From Peribolospora baueri (Eukaryota): 64,000 bases of DNA. The first letter of the stretch is position 1. Every line of letters begins with the position of its first letter. Both the position numbers and the translations under genes were made by a program. Location of the stretch: positions 1 through 64,000 of the forward strand of contig JAMDHS010000042.1 of NCBI GenBank assembly GCA_029717555.1. The letters run 5' to 3'. The notes under the pieces were generated by a model. It saw nothing but the letters and a program-made list of their open reading frames with translations, made no database searches and was not told where the DNA came from. Of the stretch, positions 12,736 through 53,455 are shown one piece after another.

Positions 12736-15700
12736 ATGGCCCCCGTTCGCATCCACTCGCCCTCGCCTACGCCCTCGCCCGTGGCCATCTTCGACACCCG
12801 CGTCATCGACCTCCCCGTCGACCACCGCCCCGCTCAGCGCTCCCTGCGCTCCCAGATCATCGACGGCCTCCGTGGTCTCTTTCCCCCCGAAGCGCTCCCC
12901 GACGCGAATGTCACCACCTCCTCCGTCGAGTCCAAGTGGAGGTGCGCCCGTAGCCTGCCGACGCTGCTTCTCTACGACAATAAGGGACTCCAGATCTACG
13001 ATCGCATTCTCTCCGATCCCATCTCAAGGGCCGACTACTATCTCTTCGACGCCGAGCTCGGCATCCTCAAGGCCCACGGAGCCGACATCATCCAGCGCAT
13101 CTCCCCCCCCACCTGGGACCAGCTCTCCTTTGCAGACGGGCAACGTCAAGGCGGCGGCGGCGGCGGTGGCGGCGGCGGTGGCGGCGGCGTGCCCTTCGTG
13201 AACCAGCTACCCCAGGGACATACCAAGCCGGCGGAGAAGGACCGGTGGGGCAACTTTAGCGGCGGCGTCAATAATGACGGCGTCAATGGCGAACACCGCC
13301 TCGGTCTGTCCGTTTCCCATCTCACCGCCTGCAACGGGCCCGGTAGCAAGGTGCACGCCGGCTGTGAGGAAGGGGCGGAGGGGCAGGGAACGAGTGCCGC
13401 CGGTGGGGAGAGGCGGGGAGAAGGACAGAAAGCAGGCAATGAAACCGATGATCAATTCGCGAGCGCCCACCATGACACCGCTAAGAAAGGCTATCTCGTC
13501 GAGCTCGGCGCCGGAAGCCTGAGAAAGACGAGCCATCTCCTCAAGGCTCTCGCCGATCACGCCGTCCACGCCGCTGCCACCGTCGACGACGACGTGGCTC
13601 CCTACACCTACTACGCCCTCGACCTCGACAAGGGAGAGCTTGAGCGCACGCTCTTCGACTTGTCTGCCGGTGCGATCAACAACAGCCAGAGCGCCGGCGC
13701 CGGCGCCGCTGATGGTCGCGAGAACGCGGCGTCCGACCAGGGCTTCGAGGAAGATGGAGTGGTGAACCTCGAGTTGGGAGGAAGGGTCGAGCTCCTGGGC
13801 CTCTGTGGCACCTACGAGCAGGGCATCCAATTCATCCGTCGCGGCGGACTCGATGCCGCCGGCGGCGGCGGTGTCCAAAACCAAGGCCCTCCCAGATGTC
13901 TTATCTGGCTTGGCTCGTCCGTCGGCAACTTCCCCCGTCCGGCCGCCTCCGCCTTCCTGCAGCGTCTCGCCATCGCCTGTCTCCGCCCACCCCGCCCGGC
14001 CGCACCTCACTACCGTCACGAAGCTGCCCAGCAGGGCTCGGCCGTCGTCGTCGATCGCCAAATCGTGGGCGATACGTTGCTCATCGGCATCGACCGTCGC
14101 AACGACCCGGACGTCGTAGAGAGGGCCTACGACGACCGCGCGGGCTGGACGAGAGAATTTGAGATGAACGGCCTCGACGTCGCCGATAGGGTCTTGAAGG
14201 GACTCGGCGTGGAGGAGACGAACGCGAACGTGGAGGAAGAAGAGGGCGACCATAAGGTGCTCGATAGGGCCAAGTGGGAGTATGCCCACAGATACAACGT
14301 CGAGGAAGGTTAGATCGCGCTAACCCATCCGCATCTCCCCCCGCATTCGGCTGCTGACTAAGTCATTCCCCTCTCTTTCATGCACGCCAACTATCATGGG
14401 CAACCCTTCCTATCTGGCGTCCGCATCCCACTCTCGATAGGCCGTCACGAGGCGTACTACCGATCTCTTGAGGACCAGGTGATCGTCGTCCCACCCCTGG
14501 ACGGCGAAGAAGGGGTCAAGATCCCCATCAAGATGGGCGAATTGGTGAGTCCCTCTTGACCGTTCCTCTCCTGTTCGCGGTCGGTCAACTCGCCGTCTGA
14601 GACCGACTCCTAACTAATCATGATCGACGTGACCACCCCCACTTTTCTCCGTCAGGTGTCGATCGAATGCTCGTACAAGTACTCCGACACCGAGGTGGCC
14701 ACCCTCTTCGCCTCTGCCGGACTGCGCGTCATCCAGAACTGGATCGACGATAGCGGCAGGTACGGTCTGTGGCTCGTCGAGCGACCCGCGTTCTCCTTCT
14801 CCGCTGGCGAGGTCAACCGCGCCGTCCAAGAGGAGGTGGAGGAGGCCAAAGGGCAGGGCGAGACGCTGCAAAGGAAGGAGAAGGGCGACCGGACGCTTGG
14901 AGAGCTCCGTCGCGATGCGGCTGCCTCCTCCTCTCCGGACAGAGGCGAACACGAGCACGAGCACGGCGGCGGCTCTCCGGCAGGCTCTCCGGCGGCCGAG
15001 GGCAGGCCGTTTGGCGTGCCGAGCCTGTCGGAGTGGCGCGAGCTGTGGAAGTGCTGGGACACCATCACCCTCGGCATGATCCCTCCGTCCATGCTCATGG
15101 ACAAGCCCATCGACCTGCGCCACAACTGCCTCTTCTACACCGGCCACATCCCCGTCTTCCAGTCCATCCACCTTCGTCGCGCCCTCGATCTCGCACCCGT
15201 CGAGCCAGCGTGGTTCGAACAAGTGTTCGAGAGGGGCATCGATCCGAACATGGAGGACCCGAGCAAGTGCCACGACCACTCGGAGGTGCCGGAGAAGGAC
15301 GATGACTGGCCGAGCTTGGACGAGGTGCTCAAGTACAGGGACGAGGTGAGGCAGAGAGTGACCAAGGTGTACGAGGAGGTAAGGAACGGGGAGAGGAAAT
15401 GGACGAGGCGGCTCGGTAGGGTCATGTTTATGGTGAGCGGCTCTTTCTCTCGCGTGCTGCTGCTGCTACTACCGTATTCCGCATTCGCTCATCTTCCCCG
15501 TTTCTCCCTGAAAAGACCTTCGAGCACGAAATCATGCACGCAGAGACGCTTCTTTACATGCTCGTTCAGCGCGCCGACGTCGCGCTTCCGTTCTGGGACG
15601 GCAAGCACACTCTCCCTCCCCCAGGCTTCGCCGTACCCGACTTTGCCACTCTCGCCTCGCACTGGGACGCCGAGGTGGCTCGTATGGGCGGTGAGGCTGC

Positions 15701-16842
15701 GCTCCATGATCGGACGGTCACCTTTGAGGGCGAGACGACGTTCAACGTCGGCCACGACGACTTCGAGGCGGAGGACTGGGACAATGACGGCGACGAGAGG
15801 ATCATGACCGGCGGTGAGGAATTCGGGTGGGACAATGAGTCGCCTAAGAGGACTGTCACCGTCGGACCGTTCAAGATCGCCGAGGCGCCCGTCACGAATG
15901 GACAATGTGAGCGAACGGCTGTCGTATCGGGAGTCGCGAGCGAGGAGCGCAGGGGTTCAAGCCTTTTTCCGGTTTTCCTTTTTCCTTTTTCCTTTCTCTC
16001 CTCGTGCAGATTACGATTTCCTCAAGTCCACCTCTGCCCTCTCCGACGATTCCCTCTTCCCGGCCTCCTGGGTGCGATCTTCGAACGCCGGCACGGGCAC
16101 GGGCGAGGAGGTGGCTCTGGTGCGCACGCTGTACGGGCCCATCCCGCTGTCTCAAGCCCATCACTGGCCTCTGCAAGCGTCGGCGAAGCTGCTCGAGGCA
16201 TACGCGGCTTCGCGCGGTGGTAGGTTGCCGACGGAGGACGAGCTGAGGCTGTTCATGGACCGTCAGGAGGAGCAAGGCGGGAGCGTCAAGGTGACGGGCA
16301 GGAACGTTGGCTTCGAGAGGTGGCATCCCGTTCCGTGAGTGTACTTGACGCTCCTTCCCTTGTCGCGCCCCAAGTCGAAGAAGATCGACTGACGGTCCCC
16401 GAGCGTCTCTATATCCTATGACACCCGCCGCCTTCTCACGGCCACGACAGTCCCCGTCTGCCGTCGAGAGACGCCAACACTGGGATCGCCACTCCAGGCC
16501 ACAACGGCGGTGTGTGGGAGTGGACTTCGACGGCGTTCGTAGCTCACGACGGCTTTATCCCGTCCAAGCTATACCCGGGCTACAGGTGAGTTGTCGTCAC
16601 TCAGCTACTCTGGCCGCGGGGCCCATCCGCCTCTCACGCCTGACCTTTTTATTTTTTTGTCGTCCTCCTTTCTTGTCCTCTGACCGACCAGCGCCGACTT
16701 CCACGACGGATCGCACCTCGTCGTCCTCGGCGGATCCTATGTCACCCACTCGCGCGTGGCAGGCAGACGCACGTTCCGAAACTGGTACCAGGCCGGCTAC
16801 CCCTATGTCTTTGCCGGAGGTAGAGTCGCTTGGGACGTGTGA
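12736..16842 (+). CDS. EGT1: Ergothioneine biosynthesis protein 1 (histidine trimethyltransferase fused to sulfoxide synthase), 7 exons, ~1151 aa
   Basis: EgtD-like domain: RSLPTLLLYDNKGLQIY, VELGAGSLRKT, YYALDL, LGSSVGNF, AYDDRAGWT, IECSYKY. DinB-like domain: PIDLRHNCLFYTGHIP, FERGIDP, CHDHSEVP, metal-binding EHEIMHAETLLYM. FGE-type C-terminus: FGWDNESP, GGVWEWT, FRNWYQ. Exons 12736-14308, 14441-14544, 14656-15432, 15516-15906, 16010-16334, 16451-16585, 16692-16842 sum to an open frame. Confidence 0.95.
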
Positions 16843-19906: not shown

Positions 19907-21725
19907 ATGTCGGACTACGACAAGGAAAAGCTAGAGTCAGGCGACGTCATTGGGGCCACTGTCCCCGTCGGCGACCTCGAGTCGAACAGCTACAATGACC
20001 CCAACGCCGTCCACGTCGGCGGTCTCGACCCCAACTCGCCCGATGGCACCGTCAAAAGGAACCTCAAGCAGCGACAGTGAGTATCTTCGTTCCCTCGCTG
20101 TTCCTCGCGTTGCATTTTCCCTCTGCTCTTTCCATTCATCACCATCGCCTTTGCTTCCCGTTTTCCCCAGTTTGTCCATGATTGCCCTCGGTGGTACGAT
20201 CGGTACGGGTCTCTTCGTCGGTTCCGGCGCCGCCCTCGCCAGCGCCGGCCCCCTCAGCACTCTGCTCGGATACTCCATCATGGGCATCATCGTCTGGTCG
20301 ATGATGATCGCCCTCGGCGAGATGGCGACGCTCTTCCCCGTCTCCGGTGGTTTCACTCATTATGCCACCCGCTTCCTCGACCCTTCTATCGGTTTCGCCC
20401 TCGGCTGGAACTACTGGTACTCGTACGCCATCACCCTGCCCACCGAAATCACCGCCGCCGCCCTCGTCATCCAGTACTGGGACTCCCAAGTCAAGATCAA
20501 CCCGGCCGTCTGGATCACGGTCATGCTTGCCCTCGTCTACCTCATCAACTTCTTCGGCGTCCGCTGGTACGGTGAGGCCGAGTTCTGGTTCTCCAGCATC
20601 AAGATCATCACCATCATCGGCCTGATCCTCCTCGGTCTCATCATCGACCTCGGCGGAGGACCGACCCACGACCGTATCGGCTTCCGTTACTGGAAACACC
20701 CGGGCGCCATGGCTCAGCTCTTCCACCAGGTCGACGGCGCGGGCAACATCATCGACGAGGGCATTCCCGGCTCCAAGGGTCGCTTCCTCGCCTTCTGGAA
20801 CGTCTTCGTCCAGGCCGCCTTCTCCTTCCTCGGTACCGAGATCGTCGCCGTGACCGTGGCCGAAGCCGAGAACCCGCGCAAGACGGTGCCCAAGGCGATC
20901 AAGCGCGTCTTCTGGCGTATCCTCCTCTTCTACGTCCTTGGCATCTTCATCATCGGCATCTGCGTCCCCTACACCGACCCACACTTGCTCTCCCCCGTCC
21001 ACAACGCTTCCGCCTCGCCCTTCGTCATCGCCATCCAGAACGCGGGCATCAAGGTGCTCCCCCACATCGTCAACGCCGTCCTCCTCATTTCCGCCTGGTC
21101 CGCCGGCAACTCGGACATGTACGCCTCTAGCAGGACGCTCTACGCCCTCGCCCTCGACGGCAAGGCTCCCCGCTTCATTCGCCGCTGCACCAAGGCCGGT
21201 CTTCCTGTCTTTGCACTCATCTGCACCGGCGCCGTCGGCGTACTCAGCTACATGCAGTGCGGCTCCACCGGCGCCGCCACGGCATTCGGCTACCTGAGCT
21301 CCATCTCCTCCATCACCGGCATCATCACCTGGGCTTGCATCCTCGGCTCGTACATTCGTTTCTACCACGGTCTCAAGCGCCACGGCATCGACCGCGACAC
21401 GCTTCCGTACAAGGCCCCCTTCCAGCCGTACATGTCCTACTTTGGCTTCTTCTTCCTCATCTTGGTCCTTATCTTCTGCGGCTTCACCGTCTTCCTCAAG
21501 GGCCAATGGGACACGCCGACGTTTGTCACCACCTACTTCACCATACCCCTCTTTGTCGTCATGTGGATCGGCTGGAAGTTGGTCAAGAGGACAAGATGGG
21601 TGTCCTATGAGGACATGGACTTTGTCACTGGCCGGCGCGAGCTGGACGAGATGGATGAGGACGCGGCCGCGAACGAAAAGGTGCCCACCACGGCGGTCGG
21701 CAAGTTCTTCGACTGGCTCCTCTGA
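19907..21725 (+). CDS. Amino acid permease (APC superfamily, yeast amino acid transporter family), 2 exons (intron 20077-20170)
   Basis: [87 protein letters not shown]; about 12 hydrophobic segments. Confidence 0.95.
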
Positions 21726-42154: not shown

Positions 42155-44816
42155 AATACTCTTGTACACCGCGCGCTATTCCTGTTAGTCTTGTCCTGTG
42201 CAACGTGCAACGCTGCCCCTCGCACAGACAGCCGCGTCGCGTGATGCCGACCGACGATCGCCGCTGCGCTGCGCTAAGGCAGCCGAACGCGGACGTGCAA
42301 AAGGAGAAAAAATACGAATACGAATACGAATAAGAAACAAGGAAAGCAAAGAAAAAAAAAGAGACGGACAGAGAAAGGAAAAGGAAGCCCAAGCCGAAGC
42401 CCAATCGGCCACGGGCATCGCACTCGCCTCGACGTTCCGCTCCCTCGCCTCGTCCCGTGCCGTCCTCGCCCGCTCGCTCCACCCTGAGAGCCCGAGCCAG
42501 AGGTGGGTTGGTTGGGTTTGGATACACGTGAGCTCCGCTCCGCCGGCGACGGCACCGTGCGAGCGAATATGGGTCGATCGACGGGAGTGATGAATGGCTG
42601 AGACAAGTCGTTCCAGATTTTCGCTCGCTGATCCCGCGCGCGGATCGACTGGTACCGGAGAGCGGGTCCGGTACATTCCCGCCGCCGCGGCGCAGCCATG
42701 GATCGTATCCTGGAGGGACCTTGGGGACGACAAATTTCATCATATACAAGTCCTCAGTACTCTCGCTCCCATTCCGTCTGCCTCTTCTCCCACCACAGAC
42801 CCACCGCTCCCTGCGCCTAGCCCACACGGTCACTTGCGGCCACGTTCGCCCGCTCCGAGCACCGATCGACACGACCTGCGACCTGCGACCGACCGCCTGC
42901 CCACCGGCGTCTTGCACCCGCGCGTCCCTCGCCTGCACATGGAGCCATCAAAGGATGGAGTCGCCCTTGATCTGTCCCGAACGCATTCGCTGATCACCCC
43001 CATCCCATCGCTCTAGGTACCTCTTTCTCTCCAGCCCGACCTGTGTCGCTCAACGCCCCCAACCTCGGGAACGTCGTCATCAACGGACGGGGCGCAATCA
43101 CGACATTGAGCCGGAAGAGCATTCATTATCTGCTCTGCTCTCGGCTGGGAAAGGGCCCATAAAGATAGATTTTATTTTTTATTTTTTATTTTTTTTATAC
43201 ATAGCAGATGCAGCACCCATTTTGACTGCGACTCGCTACCCTCTCTACGTCCACTCTTTTGGTCGATGAGGGCGACAAGACCGAAGAGGAAGAAGAGAAC
43301 AGGAAGACTTGGAGGACGAGGGGAAAAGGAAAGAGGACTGTTTCTTCTCCTTTGCACAGGCTACAGGTGGAGGCCTGTGCAAGGAGCGAAGGCAGAGAGC
43401 CAGGAGGTGAGTCTAGTCCGTGCAAGTAGGAGCAGGCCAAGATGCCCGAGGTGGAAGGGCCGTCTCGCCTCGTCTTCGCCTTTTCGGGCACGTTTGCTCG
43501 ACAGAACCCGCAACCTGTGTGACACACAGACAGGTCTCACCGCCGGCGATCACCGCCGTCGCTGTGCTGCTCCTCGGCGTCGCCTGCCATCGTCTGTCTC
43601 GTCGATCTTACGAAGCCGTCACACGTACAACCGTCGTACTATTCGCGAGATATGCCACGCGAAAACCCCATGTGAGAAACGGCGTCGTAGCCTGACGTGA
43701 TGTGATGCACGCAATATCGAAATGCCACAGACAGAAGTTCACAAACCTTTTCGCACGATCGCATGATAGAGATCGCCGAGGCGCGCGTTTGCGTGTCGCT
43801 CGCCGCCGACCGAGCACGGTGGCTACGCGGGGTTAGTAGTGCGCCAGGACGACGGACGATGTTAAACACCTGATCTGACTGAGCAAGGGGATGAGATGAG
43901 GCTCGTGCTTTTTTGAGAACGTCGTCGATCGATTGATGCCATCATCGCCTCGCCTCTCGTCCGACGCGGTCTGACGCAGACGCACTCCCCTGCATGTCAT
44001 GTCCCAGTGCCAACGGCGGCGGGCCCGTTCCATCGTCAGGTTTACACACACACAGAGAGAGAGAATTCCCATCCTCACTCACATGACGACGACACGCCCC
44101 ACGCTCCGCGCCCTCATCTTCATTTCCGTCCGCGTCGACCGGCCCCGGCCCGGTGACAGGGGCGATTTGTGGGCGAGCGAGCCAGTGCCCGCCCGTCGGC
44201 CGATTTGCCCCGTGGTGACGGGAAGCGCTCCCTCCCCGTTGATTTTTCCCTTTTTTTTTTTTTTTTTTGCTGGTGATGAACTACGGGTTGACGAGGGGAC
44301 CGATGAAGTGGACGCCGAGGAGCAAATACGTCACGATGCACCTCGAGCCAACGGTCCAGCGTGCGCCTTGGGGGGCCACCCGCCTAGGGGGGCCTGGCAG
44401 GCCAGGGTTTGTGGGCGTCGTGCAGGACATGGCAAGTCAAGTAAAGAGCATAGGACAGCGCAAGCCGGAATGAAAGTCGGAGACGGGAGAATCGTAAGCG
44501 AGCCACAAGGCGTCTCCGTTCCGTCCATCCACGCACACGTCTTGACCGAGCCAGTTTTCACAAAACAAGGGACCATGTGCGCTTTCGCTCCAAAAAATAA
44601 TTTATGTGAACGTCATCGCTTTTTCATGTCGTCATAAAGACAAGATCCGCTGCCAGAGCTGGCCCGCCGCGCCGGAACGAAATCGTGTCCTCTCCGCATT
44701 TTCTCCAAGAAGGGAAGGGGTAGATTGAGGAGAAAAAAGGTATCCAAGAAGGGCCGTGTCGAGAAGAAAAGATATCAAAGGAGATCGCCGTCCGCCACCG
44801 CGTTCTATTCGTCAGC

Positions 44817-47800
44817 TCAGATCGACCCGTCCCGGTGCCAAAAGTCGACCCATCGCTTGACGTCCCCGTCGGTCAAGCCCGAAGCGGATCGGAGCGACCG
44901 CGAGAGCTCCTGCGCTCTTTCCGTCGCGAGCATGGGCATGTGCAAGTCCGGACGGTGGCGGAAGAAGCCGAGGAGCCCCTCGGTGGGATCGCTGGCGTCG
45001 GCCGCCACGCTCTTTTCGACGCGCCCGAGCCACTCGCGGAAGGAGACGAGCGGCAGGCCGAGCGCGTCGCTGAGCGCGCCGAAGACGGTTGACCAAGGCG
45101 TCGGCTGAGGCGACACGACGTGGTAGACGGTGGAAGGAGAACTGAGATGCGGCGCAGTGAGCGCGATGTCTGCTAGAGTATGCGCAGCCACGTCCAGGGG
45201 CAGCCACGATACCGTCTGCTTGGGGGAGAGGTCATCGGCAGCGAGATCACCAGCAGTGAGTGAGTGGACACGAAAGGCGAAACATCCAGCAAGTCAGCGT
45301 CTGCGATGGGCAAGAGGGGAGGGCGCATCTGGGAATGCGAGGCGAGGCTTTGCTCACCGAGTCAGAATTGGGCAGGCAGCCGACTTGCTTGGATGCCCGG
45401 AGGAGGACTGGGACCCAGTCCGTGGGCGCCCACGCGCCCGACGGGGTCGCGCCAGACAGTTGTCCGACGCGCACCGAGTTGGCGACGAGCGCGCCGCCAC
45501 TGGCCTCCCTCGCTGCCTCAACGATGCGCTCGCTCACGTATTTGGATTCGCCGTAGCCGGTGCCGAGGCAAAGTTCCTCTTTCGAGAGCATCGCCTCCGG
45601 AACCGGTCCGTCCTCTATTTTCCAACTACCGACGGCCGCGACGGAGGAGACGAAGACGAACCGAGGCGGCGCGGCAAGCGTCGAGCGGAGCGCCAGGTCC
45701 AGCAGATGGCGGACGGAAGCGATGAGAGGTTCAAAGGAGCGAACCGACATGCGGAAGTTGAGACGCCAGGCGTTGTGCACGATGCTCGTTACGCTGTTAG
45801 TCAGCTGGGGGACAAAACCAAGGTGCGAAAAAGAAAACGGCGAGGGAAGCGTGAGCGAGATGAAAACGGCGAGGAAAGTGTGGGTGTGCCTCACTTCTGC
45901 ATACATGTCGTCCTGCAGACCCAGCCCTGGAGCCAAAATATCTCCCTCGAGCACGACCGTCTTGGAGAGGATGGACTGCACCAGGGAATCATCATCGCAG
46001 CCAATTCGCTTCAAAGCGGCGACCTGCCGCTCCGTCGACGACTTTGTACCCGGAGATGGCGACGGGCGTATGAGAGCATAGACTTTGGCGACCGAAGAAA
46101 GCGAGGACATGTGAGCGAGCAAGTTGGCGCCAAGGAATCCCGTCGTGCCGGTGATCAAGACCACTTCGAAGGCCTCCGACGACGGTCGGTGGTGCGCGCT
46201 GGCGGGATGGCGAACGGGGAAGTTGTGGGTATACTTGTCGACGAGGGACCGAAGGACCTCCACTTTGGTCTCGGAAGGAGAGCGTGCGGCGCCGACTTGG
46301 ACGACATCGACGGTCGCTGCCGCGAGCGAGGCCGGCGTGGGATGCTGGTAGACAAAGTCGGGGGGGAAGACGACGGGGCTTTCGTTCTCGGCCCGGCGGA
46401 CGCTGAAGACGATGCTGTTGCGGATATAAGTCGCGGTGAGGCTGTCGCAGCCGTGAGCGAAGACGTCCTCGTCCGGTCCAATGTCGGCGCGCATGATCGA
46501 GTTGACAGTTTCCGAGACGAAGCGCAAGACCTGTTGATGATCGCGCCAATCGTCGGGCGGCCCGACGTTGTGGGAAGGCGTTTGGGCTTCGACCAGGTCG
46601 TAGCACTGTTGAATCTCGTCAGCATACGACGTGAGAGCGTAGCCGCGTCGGACCGTCATCTTGGCGGTGCGCGGAAGCGGCTTATCTGGCGCGGCCACGA
46701 GGATCATCTGCATGGCGAGCAAATACAAAAGTGTCCAGACACAAAGCCCGGACGTCAGGCGAAGGAGGTGAAGAAGGAAACGGTCGACGCCAGTCCACTC
46801 GCCTCCTTGTACAGCCTCGAGTGACCCGGCGCCTCTGCGTTCGCGACTTCTACTTGATGCCTTGAGGGACCCAACCGGAACAAGGGCAGGCGGGACGTGG
46901 GACGTCAGTCTTCGTATTCCGGAGCCCGCTTTTCAAGGCTCGCCCAGGGCTCACTCACCAGATGCGGTTTCTAAACTCAGCCAGCGCCCTTTCGTCTCCC
47001 GGCTGCACCTCGTTGCCCGGCGTAGGCTCGATGATGATACCGGTCTGAGCACGCTCGCGGCCAAACATGACTGACGCGGCGACGAGGGGGCTCTCCTGGA
47101 TGGTGTGCTCGATCGGACCTGGGTTGGTCTAAGAAGGGGAGGGCAAGACCGAGCAGAGGGAGGCCGGCAGGTGCTTAGAAAGGGGCGAAGAGAGTCCCTC
47201 TAGGAGCGTGTGGGACGATAGCCACTCACCTTTTCGCCAGAGCTGAGCGTGATCGTGTCGTCCTTGCGACCGACGACGCGCCATAGGCCAGGCCTAGTCG
47301 GATGAGGTTGGAAGAGATCGTTGGAATGGAAGATCGGCCTACCTTCAGGGTCGTTGAAAACGGCTGGCCTGAGAGTCTCGCATTCCTTGAGAGCGGTGTC
47401 GATGAGAGAGGGGGAGGGGAGCGGTAGAATGCACGATGAGCTGACGTGTACAGGCACCAAGCTTCGCCTGGCCGCGCACAGACAGACAGAAAGCGGGATC
47501 AGTGGATGCTCACCTCGACGAGAAGCTCACACGTTCCGTCACCGTCGTTCTGGGGATCCCAGATGGCCTTGTATTGGGGTGTGATGGTGATGTACTGCCA
47601 GTCCAGGCCGTACGGCTCTTTTGAAACGATGGGCATAATGAGGCCCAGTTCGGTCCTTTGATGGGGGACAAAGAGAAGCGCGGAGAAAGAGGTCAGTAGG
47701 GAAGAAGGCGCCGTGGCAGCGGCCGCTTGAGACAGACTTACGCTCCGTATCCATTCCGGAGTTTCGCTCCGCCTTCGACCAGACGGTCGCCAGCTTCCTT

Positions 47801-49124
47801 GGAGAGAGGGCCGCCTCCATAGAACTATTTGAGAAGCACAAGCAAGCGAGGACAAGGGTTGAGGCCCCCTGGCGCCACGCAAAGACAAGAGACGGACGGC
47901 AGGGAAACGAGGCTGACCAAGTACTCCACGTGGGTCGCCAGCTTCTTCACAGCTTCCGGGTCTCTGGACCAGACCTGAAACGGCGGGGAAGATAAGAGGC
48001 GGCGATGGGACGTGAGTCGTTTCGTCGTCGGCATATTATTTTTTTCTTCTGACTCACCTCGAGGTAGAGGGGAACAGCGGAGGCGAGATCGGTTCGAGTC
48101 TTTATGAAGGCGTCCAAAAGCTCGTCGGCTGTCGGAGGCGGCCGAAGCGGGCCGCCGGGCTTGAAGCAGGCGGTGAGGCAGCCGACGGTGGGGCCCATGA
48201 GGAGGATGGAGTGGACGCCCATGAAATGGAAGAGGGGATGGGAATGCGTGCCAAAGGTGACGCCGCAGAGGTCGACGTCACCGAAGTAGGGGAACATGCA
48301 CATCTGCATCGTCCGGGAAAGCGGGCTGTCCGGAGTGAGCGAGAAGAGGGTGAGAAGTAGAAAAAGAAAGACGCGGGGCGCACCTGAATGAGGATGCGAT
48401 GGGAAAGTGAGATGGGCTTGGGGAAGGCGGAGGTGGTGCCGCTGGAAGGGAGGATCATGGCGGTGGTGTCCATGTCGTCCACCTTTCGGGCCGGTGGAGG
48501 GTCGACGTCAGCGGGGCCGGCCGAAGGATAGAGGTGGGCGAAGGTGGGCAGGGGGAGGAGGGCAGGGGGAGTGTAGGTAGCATCGGCGGCGCCTTGGTCG
48601 TCGTTGGCGAGCGATTGGAGGGCGGCGTGGGCGAGCTGCTCGACGGGGGTGCCGACGGAGACGACGACGTGGGACACCGCGGTTCGTCGGAGCAGATGAG
48701 CGAGCGCCGCGGGCGAGTTGCGGGGCGACATGGGGAAGACGGTAAAGCCCTGGCGAAGGAGGCCGACGACGACGGCGGCGCCGGTGGGAAGATCGGCGGC
48801 GAGCAGGAGGCCGACGACGCCGCGGGACCCGTTTGGCGAGGCGCCTACCGTGTCCGCCAGCGCGGCGGGCGCGATCTGGGACTCGACCCAGGCGGCAGCG
48901 CGATGGACGGCGCGGCCGACATCGCCGCGAGTGATATAGTGGAGGGCATCTCCGTCGTCGGCGTCGTAGTAAACGAAAGCAGGGTGGTTAGGCGAGTTGT
49001 GGAGGTTGAAGTCGTAGATGGCGGCGATGTCGAGGGAAAAGTCGAGGGGCGGGGTCACGAAGGTGTTGGAGCCGACGGCCTGGGGCGTCTTGGGGACGAC
49101 GCCTTTGGGGAGCGGGGACGCCAT
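44817..49124 (-). CDS. NRPS-like A-T-R enzyme (carboxylic acid reductase type), about 12 exons
   Basis: A domain: SPRNS, SSGTTSAFPKPI, PLFHFMG, YGGGPL, GYGATE, DLFQPHP, GRKDDTITLSSGEKTNPGPIE. T domain: DVFAHGCDSLTA. R domain: LITGTTGFLG, IVHNAW, GYGESKYVSE, RVGQLSG. Confidence 0.92.
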
Positions 49125-49911
49125 AGGGTTGATGAGACGGGAAGGTGTGAGCGGGCGACGGACGGACGGTGAAGGAGGCGACAATGATATATGTGTGTGG
49201 AGTGGTGCACCGTTCGGGATGTGTGCGAGCCGACCCGACTGACCTTCGCAGCCGGCGTCTCTCCGTCTCTCTTGCGCTTCCCCATTTTCTCTTGCCTTGC
49301 CGTGACGCCGATGATCACTGGCAAGTACACTCGCGCCGACCCGGGCCATCTATGCGGAGACGCCGAAGCCAAGGCGGGCGGGCACAGACTGACTGGCTGA
49401 CGTAAGCCACATAAGGTGCGTACACTGTACTCCGGTCGCGGCGTCCGCTTGTGGGGGAGTGCGTGCGGTAACGACCGCTCTACGTGCCGTCGCACTCGGG
49501 TTCGTCGTTCGTGGCTTTTTGTCTGTCTGGGATTTGGCCGACATGGAGGGGTGAGAGGAAGGACGAGCGCATGGCGTCAGGGTGCTACTACCGGCAGCCC
49601 CGGCAGAGTCTGGAGATCTCCATACGGCGATGGCTAGTTGAGCGAGCGACTCGGGCACAACGCCGCCCTCGAGTGTCGCCACGTCCTGTCTTCTCCGCCG
49701 GCATCTAGTGTCACCCCCGTTGCGTTTGGTCCACCGCGCGCGCCGGTCTGGTCTGGCTAGATAGATGCTAACTAGATCCGTCACGCTACGCCTGCGCTAC
49801 GTCCGAGCAAAGGGGGATCAGACACGCAGCATGAGTCGCCTCGTCAACCCATCCCCGAAATCCATCTACGCAGTCCGTCCACCGCGCTTTGGCCCCTGTG
49901 ATCGCCGGCAT

Positions 49912-50422
49912 GCTCCAGTCACCGAGCAGAGAGCATATGTCGCGTAGACGAAGGACATAGCCTGTGTATCCAGGGTGACACGACCCGGAGATCGCATGGT
50001 TGAGCGAGCCACGAACGGCCTTGGAAGGAGAAAAAAAAACGCGCCGGACAGCGACGGAGGAGCACTTACGACCTGGCAATTCGAAGGGCTTCCGTAGAGC
50101 AAGATTATACCACTGATGGCGCCGGCAACGGTAGCGTAGCGCGAGAAGTGCGGATGGAGAGGGGAACGACGAAGAGTCAGCGCAGGACAAGGACGATGGG
50201 TTATGATCTCCAGGGAGTCATGGAGGGCGTGAAGGGAGCCAAGGTGAGCGCATGGCATGGCAGGGTACTCACGAACCAAATTATATACTCCCACAAGAAG
50301 AGAGAGATGGCGACCCACTCCGCGTTGTCGATCTTGATCAGAGATCGCACGGCCGTCTCGAGCTCGGGCCCCAGTACGGCGAGCGGGTCGGGCTCTGCTA
50401 CTCGGGGAGAGAGGATAGGCAT
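49912..50422 (-). pseudogene. 5' part (exons 1-3) of a DUF6533-like multipass membrane protein gene, inverted relative to its 3' part
   Basis: Exon 1 50422-50273 (WVAISLFLWEYIIWF), exon 2 remnant ~50148-50070 (FSRYATVAGAISGIILLYGSPSNCQV), exon 3 from 49961 (AMSFVYATYALCSVTG), with canonical donors. Coding signal stops at ~49912. Confidence 0.72.
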
Positions 50423-51011
50423 GGCGTAGAAAGGCGGTTTGTTCGGAGGCGAGCCCCGCCTGCCCGCCCGCCCGCTCTCCAGCCAGCGACAGCACTGCTT
50501 TACGTGACAATCCTGACCGTTGTGGGCGAGCGGGTGGAAGTGACAAGCGTGGAGCTGAGCGTCTTAACAGCCCACCCGGACGGCTCGCGTTACGGACGGC
50601 GACCCATCTGCAATATTTTCTTTTGACTCGGTAATTGCGCTCTGGTCGCTTGCCTACGCGAGACGAGGAGCCTGGTCAGCGCCACTCGTGCAGTGCAACA
50701 CACGTCTCTGCCTGCTTTGCCGCCGTACGACGGTCTAACACAGCCTTGTGTGCGCCGGCCAGCTAAACCCAAGCCGTGGCTGACGCTCTCGGGGGCTTGC
50801 TCGTTCTGCCGGCCGGCATCGGGCATGAGGGCGCGACGCGAGCAGAGGGTCGCTCTGGTGGCTCAGCGGCTTGGCGCTCGCTCACCATCGTCATGTGCCG
50901 ATCGACTTCAGATTGCGACTCGGAGACTCGGTCCGTCCCGCGGCATGCGGAGGTTGATTGAGATGAGGCGTGGTTGGACGGCGCCGTTGGACGAGGTTAC
51001 GACTAGACAAG

Positions 51012-52369
51012 AGTGCTTGTTCAGCGTACCATCGCCATTTATCACAACAACGGAAGGGTCGGCGTGTTCCTATACACCATATGGGTCACCACCGTCTGCG
51101 CTTGTTGGATTTCATCGCTCACGGGCTGTGAGTCGAGCGAGCGAACGGTATGGCATGCCTGCTGCTACTCTTTTCTTCTTCCGGCAGTCCGATCCACGCC
51201 GCTCGGTTTCACTCTCCTCGGTGCCAGGTGTGTGCACTCTTTCCTCGCTCCATCGTTGCTTCGCCCGTACGACGACGCTCACCCTTCTCTCCGCCCCTCG
51301 CGCACGTCCAGCTGCACGAATCAAACCATCGGCAAATGGCGCGTGATGGGTTGAGTCAGCTCCAAGTGAGTCGTCCGCCCGAGAAGGGCAAGGCAAGGCG
51401 AGCGGGCTGCGTGGCTCACACAAAGCTGCGAACTCGACGCTCATCGACTCACCGATCCGATCTGCGCCCATGCTTCCTTTCAGATTCTTTGACTTTTGCA
51501 TTCTTGTCCTGTGAGTCCTCGTCGCAGATGCTCAGTCGGCAACCCCCCCCGGTGCGCTACTGAACCTTCTTCTTTAACCAACGACGACCACCGTTACCCA
51601 TCTTGGCCTAGAACGGTGGCGCAGTTGAACAAGTTGAAAGTACAAGGCAAGGTGGTCAACGCTCGGAACAACGACATTCAAGGCTTCATTCGCGAGTCGT
51701 CCATCTCTATTTCCTCGCCGTCTTCTCCTCCAACCTTGCGATGATGGTGGTAGATCTGGTCAAGGAGGGAGAATACGTAAGTATCGGCCGAGTCAGCGGG
51801 TTCGGCCGGAATCGCTGACGATGGTCGTCGTCCTCCTTCTTCTTCAGGACCCCGTCATCCCGGTGCCCATCACGTTCTGTCTCCAGCATATCATTTGCGC
51901 TCGGCTGGTTTTTAACCTTCGCCGACTCGGAAGGTCGGGTGTCTCGACGGGAGGGAGCAGCGGCGAGAACGGCGTATCCTTGGGACCCATCGGTACCATA
52001 CGCTCCATCAAGGACGGCGGCCGTCGGACATTGAGCCAGCCGTCCCTCTCTCAGCAAGCCATCGCCACTACCGACGACGATCGGAGTTTCTACGAACGCT
52101 CGAGCCAGGACATTTTCTCCGCCGCTCCTCTCGCTTCGTTCTCCCAAACGCGCGTGGCCGCCGCTGCTGGCGGCGGCAGCGGTCCTGGGAGACACGTCGA
52201 CGGACGCGAACGCGATCGGGACGCGTGGGAGCAAGAACAAGAACACTTGCAAAAGACGGAGACGTTGGCGCACTCCCAACCCTATGTCATCGGTTTTCGT
52301 TCTTCTTCTTCTACTTCGCGAGGCCGACTTTCCCCATCTCAGAAGATCTATAACCCGGACTGCAGTTAA
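51012..52369 (+). pseudogene. 3' part of the same DUF6533-like membrane protein gene
   Basis: Exons ~51012-51127 (VLVQRTIAIYHNN), 51188-51227, 51312-51365, 51484-51510 (FFDFCILVL), 51612-51776 (YFLAVFSSN), 51848-52369 (HIICARLVFNLR). No start codon or N-terminal exons on this strand; in-frame TGA at 51352-51354 and a frameshift at ~51705. Confidence 0.78.
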
Positions 52370-53233
52370 TTATCCTTTGATACCCTGTTCATTTTGCTAT
52401 TCCGTCTGTCCATTCGTCCGGAGAAAGGGTGTGTGTGAGATGACCATGGCGCGATGCGATGATACGATGCGCCTTCGTCGGCGAGTTCGGACCGGTCCGT
52501 CCGCCGAGGGCAGCCCGTGAGACGGCGATGAAAGGCCGGAGGAAGAGAGGAGAAGGGGACATTGTCATAAGAACAGTCATCGTCATGAGTCGGTCGCTCG
52601 CTTCCCATCGCCTCGTGTCATCCTCGTGTCGTCATCGTAGCGGCGATAGGGGATAGGACTGGTATGGGGCGGGTGCAGGCACTATGGGTGGGAGCATGGG
52701 AAGGAGGTGGTGTGTGTACGAGCGCGAGGGGGTGTGGTCGGTACGCCGCCGACGGACGAGGGCCGAACGAATCGGTGCCGTTGGAGGGGCCGCTCGGACG
52801 TTGCGGACGATGAGGAGCGAGGAGGAGGAGGGTGCACACGAAGGATGCGCTTGCGCTGCTACTGCACGCAGAGCGCCACCCTAGAGCTCAACAATACGCA
52901 TCGCGCTTCGCACTTGCACTTGCACTTGCACTCGGGCAGTGGGTGGGAACCATGTCGAGCCAGGTGATCGATCTCTACCTGGGCCTCGTTCGCCGTGGAC
53001 GACGGGGATTTGACAAGCCCGCACGCGCGCAAGCCGCTGTTGCTGCGGCACACGTGGCGCATCTCAATCTTGGGGCGGATGTAGATAGGGTAGAGCCCCG
53101 GCCTACGTGGGCCGACGCTGGCTGGCTGGCGATGGTGGATGGCCGATGTAGACCGACGCTAGCTGGCCCACTGGCCGACCGACGCTTGGTCCTGACAGCT
53201 TCTCACACTTGTCGACGCCGACATGCATAGTCC

Positions 53234-53455
53234 GCGGACTCCGATCGTCGTCATCGCGTAATTCTTTTTACTTTTACTTTGCGCGTCGGCGACGGCGACC
53301 CACACGTGTGGTTTAGTTGGTGCGCGGACCCTGATCGTCGTCATCGCCGTCTGAGCGTAATTTTTTTCCTTTTTTACTTTGCGGCACGTCCACGTCGACG
53401 ACGACGGCGACCCACGCCCACCGGAGACGGCCCGCATTATCTGCGGACCCTGATC
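53234..53455. repeat. Imperfect ~90-bp tandem duplication plus a third partial copy upstream of the P450
   Basis: GCGGACYCYGATC at 53234, 53324 and 53443. The first two continue GTCGTCATCGC...GCGTAATT-T-rich-TACTTTGCG...CGACGGCGACCCAC. Confidence 0.8.

Follow-up and report, generated by a model that had tools for sequence, protein, structure and literature searches.

A putative DUF6533-like gene split between strands within a cluster of at least four inversions in Peribolospora baueri

In Lachancea yeasts, inversion breakpoints disrupt genes, balanced rearrangements account for up to 14% of gene losses, and small inversions are favored (PMC4937564). The DUF6533 family is common in basidiomycetes (PMC8955403, PMC13563720), and its proteins are structural relatives of the G protein-coupled receptor (GPCR) Gpe1 of Ustilago maydis, with a conserved E in transmembrane helix 1 (TM1), K/Y in TM2, R in TM3, DG in TM6 (NN in Gpe1) and Q in TM7 (PMC13652807). 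Here, we describe a DUF6533-like gene of Peribolospora baueri whose two halves lie on opposite strands, within a locus at which at least four inversions separate this organism (organism A) from a close relative (organism B). All coordinates refer to the window, the whole stretch of 64,000 nucleotides (nt) analyzed from contig JAMDHS010000042.1 (assembly GCA_029717555.1), which consists of fungal, intron-rich DNA.

The 5' half of the gene is on the minus strand, with an ATG at 50422 and three exons (50422-50273, 50148-50070, and 49961-49923), and the 3' half is on the plus strand, with six more exons between 51013 and 52369, the majority of them with GT..AG borders. By hydropathy, the unjoined exon pieces contain seven hydrophobic stretches, of which the minus strand encodes about 2.5 and the plus strand about 4.5, with helix 3 divided between the two; the values for single exon pieces were 1.63, 1.78, 1.21, 1.83, 2.49 (8 aa only), 1.79, and 1.83. 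An initial annotation of the window had placed the start codon and three exons on one strand and the rest on the other, and this layout is confirmed by the exon borders, by the complementary hydropathy and by contigs of organism A without differences from the window. The contigs compared come from four public sequencing runs of one study, available as contigs and not as raw reads, of which X1 and X2 represent organism A (and are possibly the source of the window DNA) and X3 and X4 represent organism B. In X1 and X2, one contig each (26.2 and 32.5 kb, mean word depth 109 and 90) spans 48700-53200 with 0 differences and crosses every junction. That they may be the source of the window DNA, and that all four runs belong to one study, leaves some room for an assembly or construction artefact, one of the origins put forward initially; however, the two contigs were assembled separately, the window is longer than either, and the gene carries other lesions, which an artefact would not make. 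We consider this explanation very unlikely. A joint at 48798/52534 in X1 and X2 was dropped, as the 1894-nt contig that gave it is unrelated and matches in just 34 and 21 letters.

Across 4101 aligned nt, 131 substitutions (3.2%) separate organism B from the window, the two being about 97% identical. X3 and X4 are slightly different from each other, yet show an identical block order on a 9-kb contig, on which the two gene halves are co-oriented and joined at 49797/51013, with 15 extra letters at the joint, a number divisible by three. On both flanks (48700-49454 and 51013-53200), B and the window are collinear. An inversion has indeed split one gene, and the inverted block responsible is 49797-51013 (about 1.22 kb). 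The proposal of one split gene therefore stands as to the split itself, and fails as to its breakpoints, the fusion within an exon and the single event. The left breakpoint had been placed at 49911-49917, in a clean 1.1-kb inversion of 49912-51011 with its fusion inside a single exon and CTC/GAG microhomology at its ends. The B contig is unbroken across 49912, as one piece covering 49847-50148 with 6 mismatches, and the strand changes at 49797/51013. Since 49922-49797 is an intron, at whose acceptor the gene is cut, the fusion does not lie within one exon. Flipping 49912-51011 does join the halves in frame, which is arithmetically correct but had a one-in-three chance, and the CTC/GAG match, although it exists, is one of 56 inverted matches of at least 3 nt in a 65x65 grid around the proposed ends and is ascribed to chance. 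This exact model is refuted unless both B contigs are misassembled alike, and we give it next to no credence.

The comparison with B divides the locus into blocks that follow the order a b c d e f g h in the window and the order a, -b, -g, +d, -e, +f, 32 letters, -c, 15 letters, h in B. Block a (to 49454) is the collinear left flank, and block h (from 51013, plus strand) is the right flank with the 3' half of the gene. Block b (49456-49797; joints 49454/49797 and 51013/49456) is intergenic, has the opposite orientation in B, and uses the 49797 breakpoint too, while block c (49797-50404) is the gene body of the 5' half. Block d (50408-50440, minus strand) holds the start codon and leader; its homologue in B has 36 letters, lies away from the gene body and runs in the opposite direction, and was recognized by a 9-mer and an 8-mer in the 36 joint letters, motifs that occur once in the window and in 0/100 shuffles. 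Block e (50470-50508; joints 50470/50509 and 50508/50980) is a 39-nt micro-inversion relative to block f (50509-50944; joint 50404/50944), which is the upstream region and, relative to the gene body, is turned around in B. Block g (50980-51013; joints 50508/50980 and 51013/49456) is the far end of the upstream region and adjoins b in B. For A and B, the signed reversal distance amounts to 4; leaving out block d does not change it, and keeping just the three blocks longer than 300 nt lowers it to 3. At least four inversions, and not a single clean one of 1.1 kb, separate the two organisms within 49455-51013 (1.56 kb); all 8 breakpoints are inside this interval, and 49797 is used twice. Since the flanks are collinear and the multi-open reading frame (ORF) Pfam genes of the window are co-oriented and in order (6/6), the scrambling is local. 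A hidden paralogue in block b or f was rejected, as nucleotide and protein similarity did not rise above noise. Between blocks f and g, at 50944-50979 on the minus strand, a C/A-rich leader ending in ATG, like the leader of the neighboring adenylation-carrier-reductase gene described below, opens only a 12-codon frame and has no matching piece in B.

Four equally short histories pass via an ancestor in which start codon, gene body, and 3' half were joined. In all four, the c-g flip falls on the A branch and the f-e-d flip on the B branch, whereas b and e may fall on either. Two weak hints bear on these last blocks: in B, 11 letters at a joint are an inverted copy of the end of block a, suggesting that block b flipped in the B lineage, and the leader skew in the window (-0.38) is the most G-rich of 10 genes, the orientation of e in B being C-rich like most leaders (with start codons picked mechanically), which suggests that block e flipped in the A lineage. 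The same skew is compatible with a different account, in which one complex accident on the A branch, by multiple template switches of the MMBIR (microhomology-mediated break-induced replication) or FoSTeS (fork stalling and template switching) type, or by local shattering followed by re-ligation, shuffled six fragments and removed pieces, the order in B being ancestral and its gene perhaps functional, with its start among the 32 unread letters. The confinement of all breakpoints to 1.56 kb, the double use of 49797, and deletions of 80 and 37 nt inside the same block speak for such an accident, and MMBIR gives complex products with 2-5 bp of microhomology (PMC2621351). However, the ATG block d is in frame with exon 1 here and synonymous relative to the B copy, a coincidence that would have to be due to chance if B were ancestral; the 11 joint letters look like a derived scar in B; and one base is absent from exon 5 of B. 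A single accident is a possible but distinctly less probable explanation than a series of inversions over both lineages.

Besides the split, the gene has several lesions that the initial annotation had missed, and, as read from its exons and introns, it is dead here in whatever orientation, a pseudogene either way. Exon 1 (50273-50422, minus strand) has 50 codons from the ATG, a first hydrophobic helix ending in WEYIIWF, and a GTGAGT donor; its single listed difference from B (50303) is synonymous. Intron 1 (50150-50272), as read from the sequence, keeps its branch site and pyrimidine tract, and its acceptor AG is absent. At the one base 50149, B has 80 letters in both X3 and X4 (50148-50150), a difference that probably reflects the loss of the intron 1 acceptor and the front of exon 2, so that about 80 nt would be gone at the start of this exon. 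Its remainder (50070-50148) begins with FSRY and encodes the second helix; B differs from it synonymously at 50106. An alternative exon 2 at 50207-50148, in frame and of fitting length, was rejected, since this stretch holds the branch site and pyrimidine tract and B has the 80 more letters. Exon 3 (49923-49961) encodes the first half of helix 3 in 13 codons and is followed by intron 3 (49797-49922), which has 126 nt here and 37 nt more in B. The donor of this intron is non-canonical in the window (difference at 49918) and canonical in B, and the cut in the gene coincides with the end of its branch-pyrimidine-TAG acceptor, at 49797; this position is the end of the sole strict branch-pyrimidine-YAG signal on the minus strand between 49400 and 51100, against a background of about 0.3 per kb. 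The 80-nt loss (50149) and the gene-splitting break (49797), two independent lesions, each start at an intron 3' end, perhaps by chance (a few per cent).

On the plus strand, exon 4 (51013-51127) is without an acceptor of its own and encodes the end of helix 3 and helix 4, starting with VLVQRTIAIY. Exon 5 (51188-51227) has one base, at 51214, that is absent from B. Exon 6 (51312-51365, with a putative end) would contain an in-frame TGA (51352-51354) or else a defective donor there. Exon 7 (51484-51510) encodes FFDFCILV in helix 5, and exon 8 (51612-51776) encodes a loop and helix 6, with a probable frameshift near 51697 that is suggested by hydropathy and by the family pattern. A frame-keeping 61-nt GC-AG intron in exon 8 was disfavored relative to the frameshift, since helix 6 would be lost. 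The last exon (51848-52369) encodes helix 7 and a polar tail, with the stop codon at 52367-52369. It might be argued that the two halves remain functional, either through trans-splicing or as separate proteins, as the break is at an intron end and the 5' half retains its promoter side. However, the missing acceptor of exon 4, the altered donor of intron 3, the truncated exon 2, and the apparently disrupted frames of exons 6 and 8 make such a function hardly conceivable.

The gene of B may be damaged too, as its start-codon block d lies away from the gene body and its exon 5 is one base short. The B letters at three joints (32, 15, and 7) were unread, and 87 substitution rows and 38 indel rows of the comparison were unseen; these letters and rows could compensate for the damage. 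Over 48700-53200, the window and B are distinguished by 50 indel rows versus 127 substitution rows when two runs are pooled, and among the indels are insertions of 14-15 nt and two differences of 37 nt in introns; this high indel share may point to an indel-prone repair.

Regarding the breakpoints, no long inverted repeat was found at the segment ends and none flanking block e; inverted similarity at the ends was not above background (best score 7), and no 4-7-mer was shared at the 8 breakpoints (P 0.77-1.0). Among the 80 selected ORFs scanned, of 931 ORFs of at least 45 aa in the window, 21 had Pfam matches and none matched a recombinase or transposase family. Letters are lost or added at the joints, and a CTA/TAG appears to be common to 49797-49799, judging from the 11 joint letters of B. 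Given the lack of repeats, motif, and recombinase match, the letters lost or added and the CTA/TAG, end-joining or microhomology-based template switching fits, as the initial annotation had suggested for the type of origin. An 11-nt direct repeat near 50406 and 50508 beat 596/596 random pairs, but it was 1 of 46 tests and lies off the breakpoints, and it was not used. The same data bear on a reversible, recombinase-driven switch of the shufflon type controlling the receptor gene, an idea also raised at the start, for which the adjacent and nested invertible blocks with a common breakpoint and the break exactly at a splice acceptor could be invoked. No repeated site or recombinase match accompanies these blocks, the joints have lost letters, the gene is damaged at other places as well, each of the four runs (4/4) shows one orientation, and no contig with the other orientation was found in X1 or X2, although contigs drop rare variants. 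A switch is accordingly disfavored, and we regard it as improbable in the extreme.

The locus most likely represents a fixed scar of error-prone repair. With a confidence slightly better than even, we favor a fixed dead allele of the DUF6533-like gene, in which several inversions occurred over both lineages in a dispensable gene. The ancestor would have had the gene intact on one strand. On the A branch, the 1.22-kb block 49797-51013, with the upstream region and exons 1-3, would have broken off where intron 3 ends and been reinserted in reverse, through end-joining or template switching at 1-3 nt of microhomology and with a loss of about 15-20 nt. Three further small inversions (about 340, 540, and 39 nt) would have hit the same 1.56 kb, probably spread over both lineages, and deletions and point lesions would have accumulated alongside them, because, as we propose, selection had ceased to act on the gene and its promoter.

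Several observations weigh against this history. The two visible exon differences are both synonymous (n = 2), versus 4/7 in the neighboring adenylation exon, which hints that the gene was functional until recently. The unread joint letters and unseen difference rows mean that B may be intact and all events may belong to the A branch. For neutral events that arose independently, the ratio of four inversions to 3.2% substitutions is very high, the polarity of the inversions rests on two genomes with no outgroup, and no homologue of the gene was found by phmmer, in metagenome contigs, or in the PDB. A more far-reaching alternative, which we hold to be unlikely, is that the lineage as a whole has an exceptional rate of sub-gene inversions, or that distinct inversions disabled the locus separately in each of two sister organisms. 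If so, four inversions in 1.56 kb at 3% divergence and two lesions at intron 3' ends would indicate an unusual break-repair regime, possibly tied to transcription or splicing, that shows up at any site of relaxed selection.

The family assignment is no more than a lead: the predicted protein is DUF6533-like and probably a GPCR-type receptor, and the gene is not filed as a DUF6533 member. The label given initially found no support in Pfam, where PF20151 (DUF6533) matched 0/5 and 0/2 gene pieces, the pieces being unjoined and the modelled region being split by intron 1 and partly deleted; what speaks for it is an Atlas lead and motifs seen by eye. With 51013-51351, the top Atlas clusters were unnamed and eukaryotic (0.94-0.95), the nearest named DUF6533 cluster reached 0.85, and 10/10 named matches share a family, while the 5' piece gave nothing above 0.77. 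By eye, and with no family alignment, WEY (E in helix 1), SRY (RY in helix 2), VLVQR (R at the end of helix 3), and Q in helix 7 were recognized. The two TM1 glutamates are 10 apart (by eye), whereas the family pattern has the second one 8 residues before the first, and a TM6 DG motif was not seen by eye, the position of TM6 coinciding with the putative frameshift. A phmmer search of 51013-51351 against 1.84 billion representatives returned 2 matches, which were repetitive and unrelated-looking and were rejected. Exon 1 and the last exon had 0 matches among longer proteins, the metagenome contigs contained 0 loci for the last exon and 0 for the neighboring adenylation-domain exon, the PDB gave 0 matches, and no look-alike stretches were found in the other scanned genomes.

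The dead gene lies between a nonribosomal peptide synthetase (NRPS)-like adenylation-carrier-reductase gene (AMP-binding, PP-binding, and NAD_binding_4; 44800-49124, minus strand) and a cytochrome P450 gene (54227-56551, plus strand), which may possibly form a small secondary-metabolite cluster. Before the P450 gene, the intergenic interval 53230-53400 contains direct repeats that are imperfect, measure about 28-32 nt and recur at intervals of 90-100 nt. Elsewhere in the window, a gene with Methyltransf_33, DinB_2, and FGE-sulfatase domains (12736-16839, plus strand) is presumably an Egt1-like gene of ergothioneine biosynthesis, and further genes encode a fatty acid desaturase, a PQ-loop protein, an aldehyde dehydrogenase, CIA30, an amino-acid permease, Usp, a hydrolase, and LIM. 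The permease (19935-21722, plus strand) had its best matches in basidiomycetes, with at most 67% identity to any listed protein, and the organism seems to be without a close annotated relative in the database searched with it. A tree of 33 of its 120 matches and the window protein, built by a quick method, placed the organism among basidiomycetes on a long branch, the class not being settled.

As a single locus, this is an ordinary inversion-broken pseudogene, of value only as a sample of mutation processes. If an alignment of the A and B genomes showed many kilobase-scale inversion clusters, the pair would be a good natural system for the rates and junction signatures of fungal micro-inversions, and a repeated loss of the GPCR-like gene could mark a change in the sensing of the fungus. 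No published report of a comparably dense inversion cluster in a fungal gene was found in a partial coverage of the literature.

The encoded protein resembles DUF6533 proteins and Gpe1 in its seven hydrophobic stretches, in the E, RY, R, and Q motifs seen by eye, and in having DUF6533 as its nearest named Atlas cluster; it differs from them in the absence of a hidden Markov model match and of a visible TM6 DG and in the broken gene, and nothing links it to Pit2 sensing (PMC13652807). The rearrangement shares with MMBIR/FoSTeS products several junctions, a combination of inversions and deletions, and microhomology of a few bases; unlike the human copy-number changes near low-copy repeats for which such products were described, it is nearly copy-neutral and kilobase-scale, involves no repeat, and perhaps arose in several events (PMC2621351). 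Block e, with 39 nt, is similar in size to the human-chimpanzee microinversions (17-33 nt), which are flanked by perfect or near-perfect inverted repeats; none were found at the ends of block e, and the other blocks are 10-40 times longer (PMC8755829). Short template switches (PMC5453318) belong to the same comparison. As in the Lachancea inversions, an end falls inside a gene and relics are left, but the yeast study worked at gene resolution with 136 inversions over the genus (PMC4937564), whereas here at least four sub-gene inversions occur in 1.56 kb at about 3% divergence. The locus adds a further case of a pseudogene broken by inversion, and only this density of inversions sets it apart.

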